From Promethearchaeota archaeon (GTDB lineage Archaea; Asgardarchaeota; Lokiarchaeia; Sigyniarchaeales; SOKP01): DNA of 64,000 nt. The position numbers and the translations under genes are program-made. The notes beneath the pieces were generated by a model. That model searched no databases, was not told where the DNA came from, and worked only from the letters and a program-made list of their open reading frames with translations. Each line of letters starts with the position of its first letter. Within the stretch, counting starts at the first letter, position 1. Below are positions 3,593 to 20,864 of the stretch, piece after piece. Location of the stretch: NCBI GenBank assembly GCA_016839765.1, contig JAEOTP010000007.1:32001-96000 (forward strand), given 5' to 3'.

Positions 3593-4786
3593 ATGAAATT
3601 AACTTCTGAAGATCAAGATATGTTGGATGGTAAATATGGAAAGGCCACCCAAAAATCAATGGAAATTTTAACCATACTTGGTGAAATATTTGAAGCTGAA
3701 GATATGATTGATGTGGTGGGTGTTCAGATCGCAGGTGTGTCCTATGACAATCTTGGAGAAGCAGGATTGGAATTCTTAAGCGAGATGGCAGAAGATGGAA
3801 AGGTTAGAGTCTTAACTACATTAAATCCAGCAGGAATGGATCGTGAAAATTGGCGAGCATTGGGTATTGATGAAGAATTTGCTAAGAATCAAAATCGCGC
3901 TCTCGATGCTTTTGCTAAAATGGGGATAATTACAACCTGTTCTTGTACGCCTTACTTAATTGGTAATACGCCTCATTATGGTCAGCATCTTGCATGGGCT
4001 GAAAGTAGCGCGGTATGTTATGCTAATTCCGTTATTGGTGCTCGAAGTAATCGTGAAGGCGGCCCAAGTGCTCTAGCATCAGCTTTGACCGGAATAACAC
4101 CTAGATATGGGTATCATTTGGATAAAAATCGTCAAGGGGAAGTTTTAATTAAAGTTAACGCTCCAGTTAAAGGAACCGATGAATTTGGAGTTTTAGGAAA
4201 AATAATAGGTGATAAATTAGTTAAATTAGGCAAAAAAATACCATACATAACAGGTATCCCTTCTGCTTCAATTGAAGAACTCAAGTCATTTTGTGCTTCC
4301 GTTGCTACTTATGGTGGAACTGCACTATTCCACATGGAAAGAATAACTCCCGAATTCGATACATACCCTAAACCAAGCGATATCGTTTTTGACATTAATC
4401 AAAGCGATCTAGATAAAGCACGTGCTGAGCTTATAGATGATCATCTTGAAATTGATTTTGTAAGTATTGGCTGTCCTCACGCTTCAATACATGAAATTGC
4501 CACAATTGCAAAATTGTTAAAGGGAAAGAAAGTAAAGAAAGAATTTTGGATAACTACTGCTCGTCCAACCAAGAGAATTGCAGATGAAGTTGGTTATTCT
4601 AAAATAATTGAAATGGCAGGAGCAAAATTTGCAGCAGATACTTGCTGTGTTGTAGCCCCAATTAAAGGACGTTTCAAGGGTATAATGGTTGACTCCGCTA
4701 AAGCATGTTATTATGGTCGTGCAAAGAATAAATTTAAAGTAAAAATAGGAAAAATTGAAGAATGTGTTGAGGAGGCTACAAAATGA
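3593..4786 (+). CDS. Aconitase X catalytic subunit (phosphomevalonate dehydratase, large subunit)
   Basis: TCSCTPY, AWAESSAV, NSVIGARSNREGG, IGCPHAS and DTCCVV motifs; ATG at 3593 lies 7 nt after GGAGGT. Confidence 0.9.
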   Translation: MKLTSEDQDMLDGKYGKATQKSMEILTILGEIFEAEDMIDVVGVQIAGVSYDNLGEAGLEFLSEMAEDGKVRVLTTLNPAGMDRENWRALGIDEEFAKNQNRALDAFAKMGIITTCSCTPYLIGNTPHYGQHLAWAESSAVCYANSVIGARSNREGGPSALASALTGITPRYGYHLDKNRQGEVLIKVNAPVKGTDEFGVLGKIIGDKLVKLGKKIPYITGIPSASIEELKSFCASVATYGGTALFHMERITPEFDTYPKPSDIVFDINQSDLDKARAELIDDHLEIDFVSIGCPHASIHEIATIAKLLKGKKVKKEFWITTARPTKRIADEVGYSKIIEMAGAKFAADTCCVVAPIKGRFKGIMVDSAKACYYGRAKNKFKVKIGKIEECVEEATK

Positions 4787-5254: not shown

Positions 5255-6221
5255 TTGGGAACTGGAAAAGGGTATGGAAAGACTATTCTTTTTGGCGAAT
5301 TTTTCCTCCCAATTCGGGAATAAACGCTAACATTTTGTAGTTTATGGTCTTCCAGCAATCGCATCCGCTATCGGTTCTAAGACAATCGCTACTGTTAAAG
5401 CAGTCAATGGCGAAGGATGGACAGTAGATGACCAACGAATAGCAACACCAGGTTATAAGGATAAAAAATTTAAAGAGGCCCAACAAGCTATTATTAACGT
5501 TATTAAATACTTAAATATTGATATTATTAATAATAAACTTGAGATTACTTTTACAGGAGATTTAGTAGCAGCAAGTGGAGTGGGAGCTTCTGCAGCTCAA
5601 TGTACTTCTCTTGCTCGTGCACTCAGTGAGGAATTTAATCTTAATTTAGATGATGAAAAAATAAATGAAGCTGCTTATTCAGGTGAAATGGCATACCATG
5701 GAACTCCATCTGGCATCGATAATACCGCATCCACATATGGAGGATTAATTTGGTTTGTGAAAAGTTTAAGTGGAGGAAAAAACACCATTGATCGTCTCAA
5801 ATCTGCCGAAAAAATGCATTTAATTATAGCAAATACGGGCATAACTGCTTCTACTGCTGAGGTTGTTGCAGATGTTCGTAAATTGAGAGAAGAGAATCCA
5901 GAAAAGTTTAATAAAATATTCAATAAATATGAAAAAATCGCAAAAAATGCAAAAAATGCATTAATTAAAGGCGATAGGGATTCTGTTGGAAAATTAATGA
6001 ATCAAAATCATAAATTATTACAATTAATATCAGTTTCATCTGAGATTAATGACAAAATTGTCGATATTGCCTTAAATAATGGAGCAATAGGAGCAAAAAT
6101 GACTGGGACTGGTCGAGGGGGATTAGTAATAGCTTTAACCTTAGATGAAAATAATCAAAAAAGTGTTTCTGCTACTATCGAGAAGGAGGGTTTTTCAACA
6201 TGGAAAACAACTATTGGTTAA
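5255..6221 (+). CDS. mvk: Mevalonate kinase, split gene: join(5255..5299,5331..6221), 311 aa after removing a 31-nt insert
   Basis: TTG follows AGGTGA. Exon 1 reads MGTGKGYGKTILFGE and exon 2 reads HFVVYGLPAIASAIG...SGVGASAA...HGTPSGID...GAKMTGTGRGG (GHMP motifs). The ORF track shows only the part from 5580. Confidence 0.9.
5300..5330 (+). other. Candidate bulge-helix-bulge (archaeal-type) mRNA intron, 31 nt
   Basis: Central helix GGCG(5294-97)/CGCU(5325-28), 3-nt bulges AA|U (5298-5300) and AA|C (5329-31), inner UUU/AAA and a UCCC-AAUUC-GGGA hairpin. Cutting after bulge nt 2 rejoins GAA-CAU (Glu-His) in frame. Confidence 0.8.
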
Positions 6222-13039: not shown

Positions 13040-15895
13040 TTGATCGAAAAAAAAGGTCATTATTCGGGAAACAGAAGAATCGATACATCTCGTTTTAATG
13101 AACCAGATTTAGATGATGAAAAATCTAGAGAAAAATGGTTCGGAGGAAAAAGAAAAGTTAATACGAGTCGGTTATTACCAAAATGGATAAATTCAATTTC
13201 AAAATCAACTAGTCCCGAGAGTTTGCGAATTCACATTGTGGGACAATCACATATTGATATAGCTTGGATGTGGCGATATGAACAAACAAAGAAAAAGGCT
13301 CAAAAAACTTTTAAAAAGGCTGTATTGCACTCAAATATATTTCCAGACAGATTTCGTTTTGCATTAAGTGAACCATTACTTTTAGATTGGGTTAAAAAAG
13401 ATAATCCAGTTTTGTTTAACGAAATTCAAGATTTAGTGAAAAGAGGAAATATTGAGCTCGTTGGTGGATCATACGTTGAACCTGATTGTATGATGCCATC
13501 AGGCGAATCTTTTATTAGACAGAGATTATATGGTATGAGATTTTACATGGAGAATTTTGGCATTCTTCCTAATGTAGAGTGGTATTTAGATTCTTTTGGG
13601 TATAATCATGGTCTATCCCAGATATTAGCAAAATCAGGAGCGAGATATTTTTGGACTAGTAAATTAACATGGAATAAAGACACAGTATTCCCATTTGTTA
13701 ACTTTTGGTGGCAAGGACCTGATGGATCAAGAATTTTAACCGCGAATTTTGGTATGGGAATGGGACCTTTAGAAAATTGGAAAAGGTTCGAAGTAGGGAG
13801 ACACTTACTTAAAAGAGATGGAAGAAAAGTCTGGAATTATAACTTAGATTATGAAACTCTAAATCAACATGTTGAAAAAGAAATATGTCCACACGTGGGA
13901 TATTTTTTTGGACATGGAGATGGCGGACATGGACCTACACATAAAGAAGTAGCATTTGCAAACGAGTTAGCTAAAAATTCAATGTTTAAATGGAGTAAAA
14001 TTGAAGATTTTTACAAAGAACTAGAAAATTACAGCGAAAAATTTCCTATATGGAATGACGAGTTGTACTTAGAAACCCATAGAGGTTGTTTCTCAAATCA
14101 TGCTGAAGTTAAAAGATATAATCGAAAGTTCGAAAATTTACTCGTTTCTCTTGAAATCCTATCAACAATTTTAACTAAACTTTTACCAGAGTTTCAATAT
14201 CCTAAAGAACATTTAGAATTATTATGGAAAATAACACTTAAAAATCAGTTTCATGATATTCTTCCGGGGAGCTCTATTCCTGAAGTATATGATGATTGTT
14301 GGGAAGATTGGAATGAACAAAAAGTCTTATTTAAATCCATTTTCAATGAAATGGGAAATTCTTTATCAAATGATAATAGTATTTCAGATAAAGAGAATTC
14401 GGCTGATATTTATTTTTTTAATCCATCTAGCTGGGAAAGAAACTCAAGAGTTTTTATACCCATAACAGTTTTCAATAATAATTTAGAGTTGAATAATCAT
14501 AATGCACCCAATTACGCTAAAGTGAAAATCTTTGATGGCAAGAATAAGGATTATATTTGCCAACCAATCAGAGCAGAATCGTATGATACAATAGATCCTA
14601 CGCCTGCTGGCTGGTGGACAGTTATGCCATTAAAACCTTTATGTTTAACTCCAGCAAAGATAACACTTTTCAACGAAAAAGAAAGTAAAAAGATTAAAAA
14701 TTCAGAGATATTGAAAGCAAGTGAAAATTTTCTATCAAATAAAGTTCTCTCAGTAAAGATTAATCCAAAAAATGGAGCAGTAATCGAGTTATTAGCAAAG
14801 TACATTGATAAAGGTAAAAATTTGTTAAATGGCGAATCTTCTAATTTGACATTTGGTTATCTTGATATTGGATATGAAGGCTTTAGTGCATGGAATTTAA
14901 CACGTAATTATTGGGAACATCCATTAGAGCTTGATAATAGCAATAAAACTAAAGTAAAAATAATTAATTCAGGACCGATCTTTGCCTCATTAGAAATATC
15001 CAAAGAACTTGGTATTAATCCTGTAAGCCAAAAAATTACTCTATTCAAAGATCTACCCCTTGTTTATCTTGAGTACAACACAAATTGGAAGCAATCTGAT
15101 GCTATGTTAAAAATATTATATAGTACTAACACTAAAGCGGATATAGTAACTTCAGATGGAGTCTATTGTGCAATACAACATAAAACAAATCCAAAAGTTC
15201 CATGTGATAAAGCTCGATTTGAAAAAATCTGTCACAAATATATTGACTTAAGTACACCTGATAGAAAATGGGGTATAGCTTTACTTAATGAAGGCAAATA
15301 TGCTTTTGATGTAAATGATCAAGAAATGAGGTTAACAATGCTTCGTTGCTGTAAATATCCTCCACCATCAATAGACGCTTGGGTAAATAAGGAAAGAAAA
15401 GTAAATAAAGAAAAATTCAACCATGTTGTTCCCACTCATAGCGGATTAGGACCTTTTAAGTGTCGATATGCTCTATTTCCTCACAATGGAGGTGCTTTAT
15501 TAAATCCTGATGGATCGGCCAACGTTGCAGTGAAAAGAAAAGCAGAAGAATTTAATAATCCAATAATTACTTTACCATCTAAAGGTCATAGACTAGATAC
15601 AATAGATCCAATTTTAGAAATTCAACCACCAAATGTTTATTTGGGTGCTTTAAAATTAAAAGAATGGACTAAATCAGATAATATTATTATCAGATTTTTT
15701 GAAGGGTCAGGAATTTCAACAACAGCAAGAATTAAGATAAATTCAGGTTTACTTGATAAAATTTCTTTAATTCAACCAATGGATTTGCTTGAACGTGAAA
15801 TAAATAAAAGTTATGAATTTAAAAGAGATTTAGGAATTTTAACTTTTGAAATAAATAAATTTGAGATTTGTACATTTGAACTTGTATTAAATTAA
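13040..15895 (+). CDS. Alpha-mannosidase, glycoside hydrolase family 38
   Basis: SHIDIAWMW, GGSYVEPD, DSFG, GDGGHGP, ELYLETHRG and QFHDILPGSSI motifs. Confidence 0.93.
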   Translation: MIEKKGHYSGNRRIDTSRFNEPDLDDEKSREKWFGGKRKVNTSRLLPKWINSISKSTSPESLRIHIVGQSHIDIAWMWRYEQTKKKAQKTFKKAVLHSNIFPDRFRFALSEPLLLDWVKKDNPVLFNEIQDLVKRGNIELVGGSYVEPDCMMPSGESFIRQRLYGMRFYMENFGILPNVEWYLDSFGYNHGLSQILAKSGARYFWTSKLTWNKDTVFPFVNFWWQGPDGSRILTANFGMGMGPLENWKRFEVGRHLLKRDGRKVWNYNLDYETLNQHVEKEICPHVGYFFGHGDGGHGPTHKEVAFANELAKNSMFKWSKIEDFYKELENYSEKFPIWNDELYLETHRGCFSNHAEVKRYNRKFENLLVSLEILSTILTKLLPEFQYPKEHLELLWKITLKNQFHDILPGSSIPEVYDDCWEDWNEQKVLFKSIFNEMGNSLSNDNSISDKENSADIYFFNPSSWERNSRVFIPITVFNNNLELNNHNAPNYAKVKIFDGKNKDYICQPIRAESYDTIDPTPAGWWTVMPLKPLCLTPAKITLFNEKESKKIKNSEILKASENFLSNKVLSVKINPKNGAVIELLAKYIDKGKNLLNGESSNLTFGYLDIGYEGFSAWNLTRNYWEHPLELDNSNKTKVKIINSGPIFASLEISKELGINPVSQKITLFKDLPLVYLEYNTNWKQSDAMLKILYSTNTKADIVTSDGVYCAIQHKTNPKVPCDKARFEKICHKYIDLSTPDRKWGIALLNEGKYAFDVNDQEMRLTMLRCCKYPPPSIDAWVNKERKVNKEKFNHVVPTHSGLGPFKCRYALFPHNGGALLNPDGSANVAVKRKAEEFNNPIITLPSKGHRLDTIDPILEIQPPNVYLGALKLKEWTKSDNIIIRFFEGSGISTTARIKINSGLLDKISLIQPMDLLEREINKSYEFKRDLGILTFEINKFEICTFELVLN

Positions 15896-17406
15896 TAATT
15901 CAATACTGATTTTCCTACAACACTATAATGTGGTTTCAAACCCAATAAATCCAATAGAGTTGGAACCATATCAGTCGTTTTACAATATTTAATTTTAGTT
16001 TTAGCAATTTCTGGGGAACCTCCTACGATAAATGGCACTGTCATAGACTTCTTCAGCCCAATATCATGAGAGTATTGATGTGCTTCAACAGATTTTCCGT
16101 GTTCATAACTAAAACCATATTCTCCAATTGTAGACATCATTACATCACACGAACGAGGATTTTTAAAATACCGAGGGATTTGATCGATAATTATAGGAAA
16201 ATCTATTTTACTTGTACCCTCTAACCATTCTTCTATAGTGTGAGCTCTATTATCTAATAATTTTGCAGATTCTTCATAGATTTTATACCTGTATATTTCT
16301 TTATCCTCAAAAATATATTTTGTTTTTTGTTGTTTTCCATGGCCCTCATATTCAATTCTACCTTTGTTTATTTTTCCTGTCTTATTATCCGTACTTTCTA
16401 TATGAATTATCCCTTTATCTGGTGTATTCTCATTATCACGATAATACATCAATTTTACTCCAGGAATTCTCCATAATATCTCAAATAAATTGACTGTTTT
16501 ATTATTATTAAGTTTAAATTGCTTCAATTTTTCTAAGGTTGGATGATGATGCCAATCTTCCCCAGGGAAATTGAAAAATCCTACAGAACCCATAGTTGCA
16601 TCAAAATCTCCTGTGCCATTTTTTGGTTGATATTGTGTTAAACCAGTCTGTTTGAAGAAAGGTTCAATATCATACATCTTTTCTGACTTATAATTACCAT
16701 GATCCGAAATAATCCCTATAGCAGTTGAATCATACAAACCCCTCTCTTTGAGAGTCCTAATTAAAGATCCTATATACCTATCACAGTTGATTATCTCCTT
16801 AATATAATCTGGATGTTCAAAACCTTTCTTATGCATGAGATCATCAGTTTCTGGAATATATGCAACTGTTACTTTTGGTACTTCCTTTTCTTGAAAAAAA
16901 TCTAGTGGATTTTCGAATATATTTTCAACTTCCTTCATTATTGAAGCAGAGGTAAATTGTTTAACGGGGATAAAAAGGGAACCGCGATTGATAAGATTTA
17001 ATGAACTAGCGAAATTCCCATCACCTGCTTGCTCGAAAATTGTTTTCACATTTGTGCCAATATCTTTATTGATTTTTCTAATATGTCTTGCAGATCCATA
17101 AGTTTTAATAATAGGATATTTTTTACCTTTAGTAGCGGGGTCTTCTCTCGCAATCCAATGATACATTGGAATACCACTCCCCTCTTTGGGATAATAACCT
17201 GAATAGGACCCAAGAATTATATTACTATAGCAAGGATAAGTGATACTTGGAAAAGTAGTAATACAATTTGAACAAGAAATGCCATCTTTTGCAAGTTTAG
17301 CGATATTTGGGAGTTTATTTTGGTCAATCAAAGTGAAAAGATGAGAGGCTCTCACATCATCTAAAATAATTAGGATAACTTGGTTAACTTTAGGATTTCG
17401 GCTCAT
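15892..17406 (-). CDS. Alkaline phosphatase superfamily / nucleotide pyrophosphatase-phosphodiesterase
   Basis: IILDD, TTFPSIT, DDLMH, ISDHG and DMVPTLL motifs. Confidence 0.85.
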   Translation of the reverse strand: MSRNPKVNQVILIILDDVRASHLFTLIDQNKLPNIAKLAKDGISCSNCITTFPSITYPCYSNIILGSYSGYYPKEGSGIPMYHWIAREDPATKGKKYPIIKTYGSARHIRKINKDIGTNVKTIFEQAGDGNFASSLNLINRGSLFIPVKQFTSASIMKEVENIFENPLDFFQEKEVPKVTVAYIPETDDLMHKKGFEHPDYIKEIINCDRYIGSLIRTLKERGLYDSTAIGIISDHGNYKSEKMYDIEPFFKQTGLTQYQPKNGTGDFDATMGSVGFFNFPGEDWHHHPTLEKLKQFKLNNNKTVNLFEILWRIPGVKLMYYRDNENTPDKGIIHIESTDNKTGKINKGRIEYEGHGKQQKTKYIFEDKEIYRYKIYEESAKLLDNRAHTIEEWLEGTSKIDFPIIIDQIPRYFKNPRSCDVMMSTIGEYGFSYEHGKSVEAHQYSHDIGLKKSMTVPFIVGGSPEIAKTKIKYCKTTDMVPTLLDLLGLKPHYSVVGKSVLNY

Positions 17407-18769: not shown

Positions 18770-18844
18770 AAATCCTTACTCGCGCAAAGTATTCATCAAA
18801 TAACTTTCCAAATTGGTTTTTTTATTTGAATCATTATATAGGAT
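18770..18844 (-). promoter_or_regulatory. Candidate eukaryote-like/lokiarchaeal SECIS element in the 3' UTR
   Basis: Minus strand reads AUGA-U-UCAAAUAA-AAAAA-CCA-AUU-UGG-AAAG-UUAUUUGA-U-GA: tandem GA core, 8-bp stem and unpaired A run, starting 10 nt after the stop. Confidence 0.6.
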
Positions 18845-19774
18845 TTACTTTTGGGAACAATCAATTCCTTCTTGAAGATTTATTTTCATAAATGCCTCCT
18901 CTTGTTGATTTCTTTGCTCTGATTTGACAGATCTATTGACTTGAGCCAGATATCTGATTGCATTTACTTTCCCTTCCTTTATGTTTTGTATTAATTCTTC
19001 TTTATTTAAACCACCAGAAATTACTAAAGCCGTTTGAAAACTATGATCGGGTTCCAATGTCATAAACTCAATTTGTAGGGAAGATAATATTTCTCCCATG
19101 CCCTCGTATAAAGTATTTGATAGATTTAATTTATCATTATCTATTTTAAAGTCTTTTGTTAAGCTCGATTCATAATGAGTTGATTTTGAGATTGGGGAAA
19201 AGCCAGCATATAATCCAGTATCATCGTATTGATAAATTATATCGTTCTCCTCATCATAACCCGAATAATCGTTATCAAAACCCTTTAATCCATTTACATC
19301 GAAATCAAATACGAAGTACATTGAGAAATCGATTAAATTATAGTCAGATATGTTTTTTATAGTAAAAAAGGTATTTATATAAGGAACTTTAGGAGGATTG
19401 AATATATCTACATACAATCTTATTAATGAATTTTCTTTTCTAAATTTAAGCGGAGGAATTATATTTCCTTTGACTAATTTTTTTAAGTATTCTTTTATAT
19501 CAAAATCAAGTGTAATTCGGTCTATAGTTGTGCCTGTTCTGGTATTAACCATTTTATATATTGGAGTAGGTTCAATATTTTTTAATATTACTGGAATCAT
19601 GCCAATACGCTCTCCCTTTAAGACAAATGAAAACCATGGACCCGCAAATTCCTGTTCAGTAAGGAAAAGTAAGGGTTTTTCTTTATACGTCAACTCCTTA
19701 ATTGAGAATCCCATCAAATAACCTGATTGATTTCATGTAGCCAAAACTTCATTGAAGGATACTTTTAAAACTAT
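18845..19774 (-). CDS. Uncharacterised protein, candidate selenoprotein (UGA at 19735-19733). Minimal ORF is 18845..19717.
   Basis: A 290-aa ORF extends in frame through one TGA to an ATA lying 10 nt after AGGAGG: VLKVSFNEVLAT(U)NQSGYLMGF. SECIS-like hairpin follows the stop. Confidence 0.6.
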
Positions 19775-19889
19775 TTTTCAATAACCTCCTTTGAATTGTA
19801 ATTAAAAAAAATCCATTATAATTATTTCATTATAATTATTTTATTATAATTATTAATTAAACAAATTAAAAAAGATATTTTAAAAGTAA

Positions 19890-20864
19890 TTACACTTTTT
19901 CTATAAATCTATAGGCGATATAAAGGAATGCTTCGTTGACATTTTCGCCCGTTTTAGCACTTGTCACTATGAAATGAAGGTCTAACTGTTTCGCAATAAC
20001 TTTAATCTGTTCTTCAGTAATGACAATATTTTTATTTAAATCTGATTTATTACCTACGATAACAATTGGGATATTACGTGGAACAGATTCTTTAATATCT
20101 TTAAACCAAGTTTTAATACTATCTAGATGATCTCGCGTTCTATCAACCACAATAAATGCAGCATTGGCACCATCATAGAATCTTTGCCTATAAGGTCTAA
20201 TTTGTCCAATCTGTCCACCTATATCCCATAAAACAAAATTCAGTTTTGTATTTTCGTCCATGATAATTGATTTTTTCGATATTTCAACGCCAATCGTGGA
20301 AATATAATCCTCCTTAAAATTATTTTCAACAAATCTTCGAATTAAAGAAGTTTTACCCACTTTAAAATCTCCAGTTACTATTAATTTAGCTGTAAATTGT
20401 CCTTTTGGTAACTTTCCTTCTCTTCTTTTAGATAATACTCTTATTATTTCTGGAATTTTAATTGAGACATTCTCATTTCCTTCTAATAACATCTCAATTT
20501 TGCCTGCAATATGTTCAGAATAAACTTTTAACTCAACATCCGAAGTTGATGGATCCGCAATTGTAGTTAGAATGGAGTGATGTCCCATTGAACAATATGC
20601 GAATTTTCTGTTTTGTAATGAGGTTATGTTGAAAAAATTACTTTGAGTCTGATACTCACTTTTTATTCTATCGATATATATATCTAAAAATGCTGAAATT
20701 GCACCTATAATAGAATCTGAATCTTTATCTTCCTTAACTTTACTCTCCGAAGCTATAATAAAACCATCTCTGTCGCATAACGCAACAGCTGCTGCACCAT
20801 CAACTTCATACATATAATTTTTCAATAGTGTAGTAATGAGATTAATATTAGGAAGACTTTCCAT
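19890..20864 (-). CDS. Roadblock/LC7-like domain fused to a Rab-like small GTPase
   Basis: N-terminal AVALCDRDGFIIAS. G1 GDFKVGKTS, G2 YISTIGVE, G3 WDIGGQ, G4 NKSD, G5 TSAK. Confidence 0.88.
   Translation of the reverse strand: MESLPNINLITTLLKNYMYEVDGAAAVALCDRDGFIIASESKVKEDKDSDSIIGAISAFLDIYIDRIKSEYQTQSNFFNITSLQNRKFAYCSMGHHSILTTIADPSTSDVELKVYSEHIAGKIEMLLEGNENVSIKIPEIIRVLSKRREGKLPKGQFTAKLIVTGDFKVGKTSLIRRFVENNFKEDYISTIGVEISKKSIIMDENTKLNFVLWDIGGQIGQIRPYRQRFYDGANAAFIVVDRTRDHLDSIKTWFKDIKESVPRNIPIVIVGNKSDLNKNIVITEEQIKVIAKQLDLHFIVTSAKTGENVNEAFLYIAYRFIEKV

Follow-up and report, generated by a model that had tools for sequence, protein, structure and literature searches.

The locus studied here raises the question of whether a strong ribosome-binding site that is followed by a non-canonical start codon and, shortly afterwards, by an in-frame TGA marks the true beginning of a selenoprotein gene or merely a short leader ahead of an ordinary one. 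Within the window, i.e., the whole 64,000-nucleotide stretch of DNA that was analyzed, all features of the gene lie on the minus strand. A Shine-Dalgarno (SD) sequence, AGGAGGT (19784..19790), which is conserved upstream of orthologs, precedes by ~10 nt an ATA codon (19772..19774), the putative initiation site. The frame opened by this codon runs through twelve sense codons to a TGA at codon 14 (19733..19735), then through six codons to its first ATG (Met21; 19712..19714), and ends at a TAA stop (18845..18847). Read through the TGA as Sec14, the full coding sequence (18845..19774) comprises 309 aa, of which database gene calls, all starting at Met21, give the 289-aa part only. The original prediction had proposed selenocysteine at residue 14, and the SD, ATA 19774, TGA 19735, stop codon and downstream AUGA were each found where it had placed them. 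Among same-genus orthologs, neither the TTG that lies out of frame 3 nt downstream of the SD nor the short ATG frame overlapping Met21 was conserved. No stable hairpin around the UGA was seen in the gene's own clade, and a sigma-70 promoter scan, using a consensus that is not relevant for archaea, gave results at chance level. The gap between the upstream GTPase gene and the selenoprotein gene contains a 12-nt AT-rich word three times, with a period of 14 (19815-19854, minus strand).

Homologs were present in 219/400 Asgard genomes and in 123/134 genomes of the source family, figures to be read as descriptive counts, related genomes not being independent. The TGA was kept in each of the 24 genomes of the same genus that gave a match, as it was in all 80 GTDB loci, 77 of them contiguous and three with an intron after the codon. 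At this column homologs carried TGA or Cys and never Trp, as expected if residue 14 is selenocysteine; UAA or UAG never occurred there, in a lineage that is AT-rich, and three apparent Arg cases were TGA followed by an intron. The motif takes the form xxxU in the main clade, to which the source gene belongs, CxxU in genus g12 and families f3, f4, f28 and f31 (f31-type proteins being those of Thorarchaeota, by cluster names), and CxxC in family f2. By alignment, the first cysteine (Cys11) is lost in the source gene's clade. The Cys homologs are remote, at about 25% identity. One CxxC homolog, annotated with an ATG start, lies at the same distance behind a Ras-like GTPase gene as does the source gene, which supports its orthology despite 24% identity. 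The family tree has long branches at its base, so we draw no conclusion as to whether Sec or Cys was the ancestral state.

Coding conservation was found on both sides of the UGA. In codons 2-13, variation by codon position was 0.25/0.09/0.45, i.e., biased towards the third position, and the synonymous share of single-base codon differences was 0.66, with 0 stops (65 sequences); in codons 15-20 this share was 0.78. The upstream UTR, used as a control, gave a synonymous share of 0.17 and stops in 57/72, while the other two frames of the codons 2-13 stretch were 16% and 2% synonymous and held many stops. Codons 2-13, where the original prediction had looked for conservation, thus evolve as protein. 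The original prediction had also counted homologs beginning at MGFSIK as evidence against itself; several lineages do not have Met21, and three close orthologs have an ATG ahead of the TGA. At the same position or spacing in 76 orthologs, the start codon was ATA in 64, ATT in seven, ATG in three, TTG in one and none in one, with an ATG 15 codons upstream of the UGA serving as the start in the three close orthologs. The ATG, TTG and ATT forms fix the start region. Met21 was kept in 80/80 close loci, so that a second start there, giving a Sec-less isoform, is possible in these orthologs; it is absent from the g12, f2, f4, f28 and f31 homologs.

Elsewhere in the source genome, ATH codons followed the SD in 8/66 SD-led frames, some by chance, and ATT, ATA or ATC apparently start other genes behind a strong SD on several contigs. 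AUA as a dedicated regulatory start was considered and set aside, since other genes of the genome also seem to use ATH codons; the AUA start may instead be a lineage trait.

The 3' element (18770..18846) is, on comparative grounds, a eukaryote-like SECIS of type II. It comprises a lower helix (18846-40 with 18776-70), an AUGA starting at 18834 (10 nt past the stop), an 8-bp upper stem (18829-22 with 18803-796), an A-run with a mini-stem (18821-04) and a 3' UGAA (18795-92). All of these parts had been described by the original prediction at these positions; what it had missed was an extra short hairpin (18777..18791) with a ~5-nt loop, which lies between the 3' GA and the lower helix, makes a three-way junction and covaries, and also the conserved C-terminal Cys306 of the protein. 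One study (PMC11227280) gives the Asgard type II model as a GA_[G/A]A core, a 7-15-bp upper stem, a 2-8-bp mini-stem, unpaired adenines and a position near the stop; here the core is invariant, the stem has 8 bp, the mini-stem 2-3 bp, and the element lies near the stop. The hairpin was found, with covarying helices, in 79/79 scorable loci of the UGA family, in keeping with its proposed role as a SECIS. In these 79 orthologs, the AUGA and the 3' A-G positions of the core were invariant or nearly so, the upper stem was 99.7% paired, double-sided changes occurred at 16/20 pairs, and the distance from the stop was 8-18 nt. In the alignment 92% of cells were paired, above all 500 shuffles and all slid controls, although this share leans upward because the structure was drawn from the same sequences. 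Single-sequence folding of the element was modest (z -1.84) and no Rfam SECIS family matched it; the evidence for a SECIS is therefore comparative.

A covariance model built from the SelD SECIS alone scored the element at 13.2 bits (E 0.72, rank 3 in the window) with the cores aligned correctly, and a descriptor scan returned 9 genome matches versus 6 in a reversed control, so was not specific by itself. A model built from the family matched no element of the source genome other than this one, which, together with the weak SelD-only score, indicates that SECIS sequences are gene-specific. The family model also picked out the element downstream of another eight f1 orthologs with UGA; near six Cys orthologs tested it found none, a weak null since the model is lineage-specific. 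By inspection, the AUGA of the SECIS coincides with the stop codon in the Thorarchaeota UGA orthologs, one f4 SECIS core is degenerate, and the f28 homologs showed no clear SECIS. In family f4 (L025 and L028, last codons), the SECIS lies largely inside the coding sequence. The type II lokiSECIS of SPS/SelD, as described in PMC4989117 and PMC11227280, shares with the source element an AUGA core, a short upper stem, unpaired adenines, an apical mini-stem and a lower helix, whereas the source element is distinguished by its 8-bp upper stem and its sequence (13 bits with the SelD model). The extra hairpin covaries in the source family and in the SelD SECIS (5/5 pairs with double-sided change) and is also present after HdrA, MvhD, VhuU and SelD in the source genome. 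A hairpin of this kind 3' of the SECIS core is common to several Asgard selenoprotein genes (L035, L156-L184 and 18777-18791 of the window), and the available portions of the texts of PMC4989117 and PMC11227280 make no mention of it.

The genome should also encode the machinery for Sec, as the original prediction had pointed out, and a complete set was found. The tRNA-Sec (62 bits) adjoins SepSecS; PSTK is full length at E 8e-49, below the TIGR03574 cut-off; SelD carries its own UGA; and EFSec, which is divided between the ends of two contigs, finds its best PDB match in M. maripaludis SelB (E 7e-49).

Two other accounts of the UGA were weighed against Sec insertion. Under one of these, the protein starts at Met21, the UGA is the real stop of a 13-codon leader, and the hairpin, lying between convergent genes, acts as a terminator or in RNA stability. 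All database calls begin at Met21, which is present in 80/80 close loci, the upstream start codon is non-canonical, and the next gene is convergent in 68/76 loci. A leader stop, however, sits poorly with a codon that is always UGA and never UAA or UAG in an AT-rich lineage and that is replaced by Cys in homologs, just as a Met21 start does with the coding constraint on codons 15-20, with the absence of Met21 from g12, f4, f28 and f31 and with a predicted model in which residues 1-20 supply strand 1 of the sandwich. As for a terminator, the most conserved part of the RNA is its non-Watson-Crick core and not a U-tract, and the terminator scan did not pick the hairpin. We consider this account very improbable. 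That the UGA, being in frame, is read as Trp or Cys through a changed genetic code or ordinary read-through is barely credible, given that orthologs also use UGA as a true terminator, that Trp never occupies the column, that tRNA-Sec is the only tRNA with a UCA anticodon among those listed by ARAGORN (an incomplete list), and that a SECIS accompanies the UGA forms but was undetected near the Cys forms tested. The reading of UGA14 of the 309-codon frame as a sense codon, and of the product as a selenoprotein, is strongly supported by the sequence comparisons.

Further support for the upstream frame came from introns in orthologs. Seven distinct ortholog sequences (L096, L101, L102, L124, L125, L127 and L129, from five genus g22 genomes and two metagenome contigs) carry an insert of 28-32 nt one base after the UGA, which is absent from the window's own gene. 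The insert lengths are never a multiple of 3, i.e., the inserts are frameshifting. Each can be folded as a 4-bp helix between two 3-nt bulges, and cuts after the second bulge base, following the bulge-helix-bulge (BHB) rule, restore both the frame and the conserved Asn15; in L127, Asn15 was obtained only with the exact BHB-rule cut. The outer exon helix is weak in several inserts, indicating a relaxed BHB. EndA genes are present, and the inserts are probably EndA-spliced mRNA introns of the tRNA type. Since an excisable insert would be unneeded if translation began at Met21, the inserts support the upstream frame. In the family tree, the intron-bearing genes occupy about four places inside one well-supported clade, a scatter that fits repeated gain or loss. 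In the literature searched, BHB mRNA introns of this sort are documented for the crenarchaeal cbf5 pre-mRNA (PMC2738675), whose coding sequence is likewise interrupted by a short frameshifting insert, with two 3-nt bulges enclosing a 4-bp helix. The gene and lineage differ, however, and in the selenoprotein orthologs the insert lies one base after the Sec codon, with the UGA forming part of the central helix and first bulge. Elsewhere in the window, a mevalonate-kinase-like gene (5300-5330, plus strand) contains a 31-nt insert that splits its GEH motif and whose removal restores the frame.

Upstream of the selenoprotein gene lies a Roadblock-Ras/Rab-like GTPase gene (19890..20864, minus strand; Pfam Ras/Roc). 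This neighborhood, noted in the original prediction, is conserved, with a Roadblock-Ras-like GTPase gene upstream in 77/80 loci and directly so in 75; it was absent in the Thorarchaeota and f4 loci examined. Downstream genes vary and are mostly convergent (68/76). A phosphodiesterase-like gene recurs within 3 kb in 32/80 loci, and in the window GH38 mannosidase-like and phosphodiesterase-like genes are found near the locus (13040-17406, plus strand). By eye, the CxxU homologs of f28 (L136 and L137) are followed directly by a glycine-cleavage H protein-like gene.

An AlphaFold2 model of the protein, with the UGA read as Cys, had a pLDDT of 92 and a pTM of 0.90, both termini being of low confidence (pLDDT 63-68). 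In the model, the protein adopts a beta-supersandwich, in line with the sandwich fold guessed at in the original prediction. The best structural match had a Z of 20.4 (rmsd 2.5 A, 228 residues), with Z values of 20.4 to 18.5 for the cyclic glucan synthase GP domain and the glucodextranase, glucoamylase and cellobiose phosphorylase N-domains, and of about 12-13 for aldose epimerases; the galactose mutarotase-like fold is a related fold class. The predicted fold is thus a stand-alone N-terminal beta-supersandwich of GH94/GH15 type plus linker helices. The corresponding domains of GH94/GH15/GH116/GH65 enzymes (8rf9, 1ulv, 1lf6 and 2cqs) align at Z 18-20 (rmsd 2.4-3.1 A, 213-238 residues) and are also followed by linker helices. 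Unlike those enzymes, to which it is 12-14% identical, the source protein stands alone without a catalytic barrel and carries a Sec/CxxC site and a C-terminal Cys.

Sec14 is placed by the model at the end of strand 1, in the beta1-beta2 turn. The only Cys of the protein, Cys306 (18857..18859, minus strand), is a candidate resolving Cys; it is invariant in A1, and a C-terminal Cys occurs in 80/80 loci, but Cys306 is absent from the f31, f28 and P0138-group homologs. Apart from Cys306, the invariant positions include acidic and aromatic residues, among them an acidic DFD...G...D loop. The source protein is without a hydrophobic leader. No Pfam or NCBIfam family covers it, a PDB sequence search gave no match, and none of 69 members matched thioredoxin-fold Pfam or NCBIfam models. 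When searched without a length limit, the domain core, minus the Sec strand, was found as part of large, modular proteins that also contain PKD, CARDB, Ig and transglutaminase domains, and in one genome the frame continues across masked bases into a vWA-like domain; these occurrences fit a ligand-binding module.

What the selenocysteine does is a more tentative matter. We favor a redox-switched protein in which Sec14 would pair with Cys11 or Cys306, and give this somewhat less than an even chance. An alternative, which we hold to be unlikely, is that Sec14, Cys11 and Cys306 act as metal ligands (for Zn, Cu, Ni or Hg) rather than as a redox couple. The f2, f4 and g12 forms do have three conserved thiol/selenol positions, one CxxC subgroup has CxxCxxC, and one homolog adjoins hypD. 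Set against this, the main clade, the source gene included, keeps Sec14 and Cys306 only, too few for a usual structural site, and no His column is conserved above 56%. Rather improbable, in our view, is a selenoenzyme of sugar metabolism with Sec as the catalytic nucleophile in the sandwich cleft, be it mutarotase-, epimerase- or lyase-like. The fold is common to glycoside phosphorylase/hydrolase N-domains and aldose epimerases (the latter at the Z of about 12-13), there are invariant acidic and aromatic residues, and GH38 or GH2 genes lie near several loci. A catalytic (alpha/alpha)6 barrel, however, is absent, the chain ending at residue 309, and the Thorarchaeota neighborhood differs. Aldose 1-epimerase (galactose mutarotase) has an invariant catalytic His, whereas the source family does not.

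Returning to the selenoprotein reading, we propose the following mechanism. Ribosomes would bind the SD and, judging by its conservation, initiate at the AUA. The UGA14 would then be decoded as selenocysteine by tRNA-Sec and EFSec, a step with strong comparative support, under the direction of the SECIS some 900 nt away in the 3' UTR. The product would be a 309-aa cytoplasmic selenoprotein, whose predicted fold is the stand-alone supersandwich described above, of GH94/GH15 N-terminal type, with linker helices and with Sec14 ending strand 1. We regard AUA initiation, SECIS-directed Sec14 and this fold, taken jointly, as highly probable. Beyond this, and only with the near-even odds given above, Sec14 may be a redox centre that forms a reversible selenenyl-sulfide, the partner being Cys11 in CxxU forms and Cys306 in the source clade, which has lost Cys11 and has no Cys besides Cys306. 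Binding of a ligand (sugar and/or Ca2+) would fall to the sandwich with its conserved acidic loop; the protein would then be either a small oxidoreductase or a binding or sensor protein switched by redox state. When selenium is scarce, termination at UGA14 would yield a 13-aa peptide, and output would thereby be tied to Sec supply.

A more far-reaching reading, which as a whole is decidedly doubtful, would make the family an Asgard-specific selenium- and redox-dependent switch for the co-transcribed Roadblock-Rab-like GTPase. In this combined form, neither bacteria nor methanogens would have a selenoprotein related to the family, and its fold would be new for Sec; its output would be gated by AUA initiation plus UGA recoding, with a Sec-less alternative from Met21; some lineages would add EndA splicing with a splice motif containing the Sec codon itself; and the extra SECIS hairpin would be an Asgard-specific handle replacing SBP2.

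The known Asgard selenoproteins provide a setting for these results. Mariotti 2016 listed five families, Huang 2024 seven, found by homology search, and a 2026 review counts 11 archaeal and 119 prokaryotic selenoprotein families. The archaeal selenoproteome thus stands at 11 families, seven of them in Asgard archaea and all with selenoprotein relatives outside Asgard (PMC11227280, PMC13188914). The Asgard list comprises SelD/SPS, HdrA, MvhD/VhuD, VhuU/FrhA, Prx-like, AhpF-N-like and DsbA-like proteins (PMC4989117, PMC11227280, PMC13188914). The original prediction was correct in naming SPS, HdrA, VhuD, VhuU and the peroxiredoxin-like protein as published families, but its list was incomplete, AhpF-N-like and DsbA-like proteins having also been published (PMC11227280). 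Its statement that the source protein resembles no listed family held for these two as well. In the open literature, none of the 2016, 2024 and 2026 inventories includes the source family, the 119-family table of 2026 has no entry naming a beta-supersandwich domain, and two further Asgard papers describe known families only.

With the known Asgard selenoproteins, the source family shares an in-frame UGA, Cys homologs, a 3'-UTR AUGA_GA SECIS near or overlapping the stop, and the same machinery. Those families, however, have selenoprotein relatives in bacteria or methanogens, were found by homology and are related to the source family neither in sequence nor in fold, whereas the full-length form of the source family was found in Asgard archaea only. 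The Prx-like (PrxL), DsbA-like and AhpF-N-like proteins have a thioredoxin fold with Sec at the first redox-box position (UxxC/UxxU), in contrast to Sec at the second position (CxxU/xxxU) on a modeled beta-sandwich. The source family thus appears to use known machinery on a fold that, going by the model, is new for Sec. Because the start is non-AUG and the UGA follows it so closely, at codon 14, the protein is truncated without warning by gene callers, which, together with the remoteness of the Cys homologs, would explain how the family escaped notice.

Two further open reading frames of the source genome deserve mention. An uncharacterized, probably membrane-anchored one (L190:472-1464, G000 C64) contains a TGA in frame (GIA-U-DSF) as well as a SECIS-like element that includes the extra hairpin; TGA and element are both kept in one 93%-identical relative, thin evidence on which it may be a second candidate new selenoprotein. 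The other, a short frame with one hydrophobic segment (L191, G000 C12, about 3650-3900, plus strand), combines an in-frame TGA (GGG-U-PCP) with a clean SECIS-like element, and is a candidate small selenoprotein. By eye, L043:1033-2586 encodes an eIF2-gamma-like GTPase with an extra N-terminal helix-hairpin-helix-like segment.

Taken together, the data indicate that the locus very probably belongs to a real and apparently undescribed selenoprotein family, which spans more than half of 400 Asgard genomes. Selenocysteine on a beta-supersandwich of the glycoside-hydrolase type would widen the chemistry known for Sec, and some orthologs add a case of probable tRNA-type splicing in archaeal mRNA. 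The many SECIS elements of the family form a sizeable, independent Asgard collection, in which a conserved extra hairpin comes to light; it is a candidate, open to testing, for the means by which these archaea may read eukaryote-like SECIS elements without SBP2.
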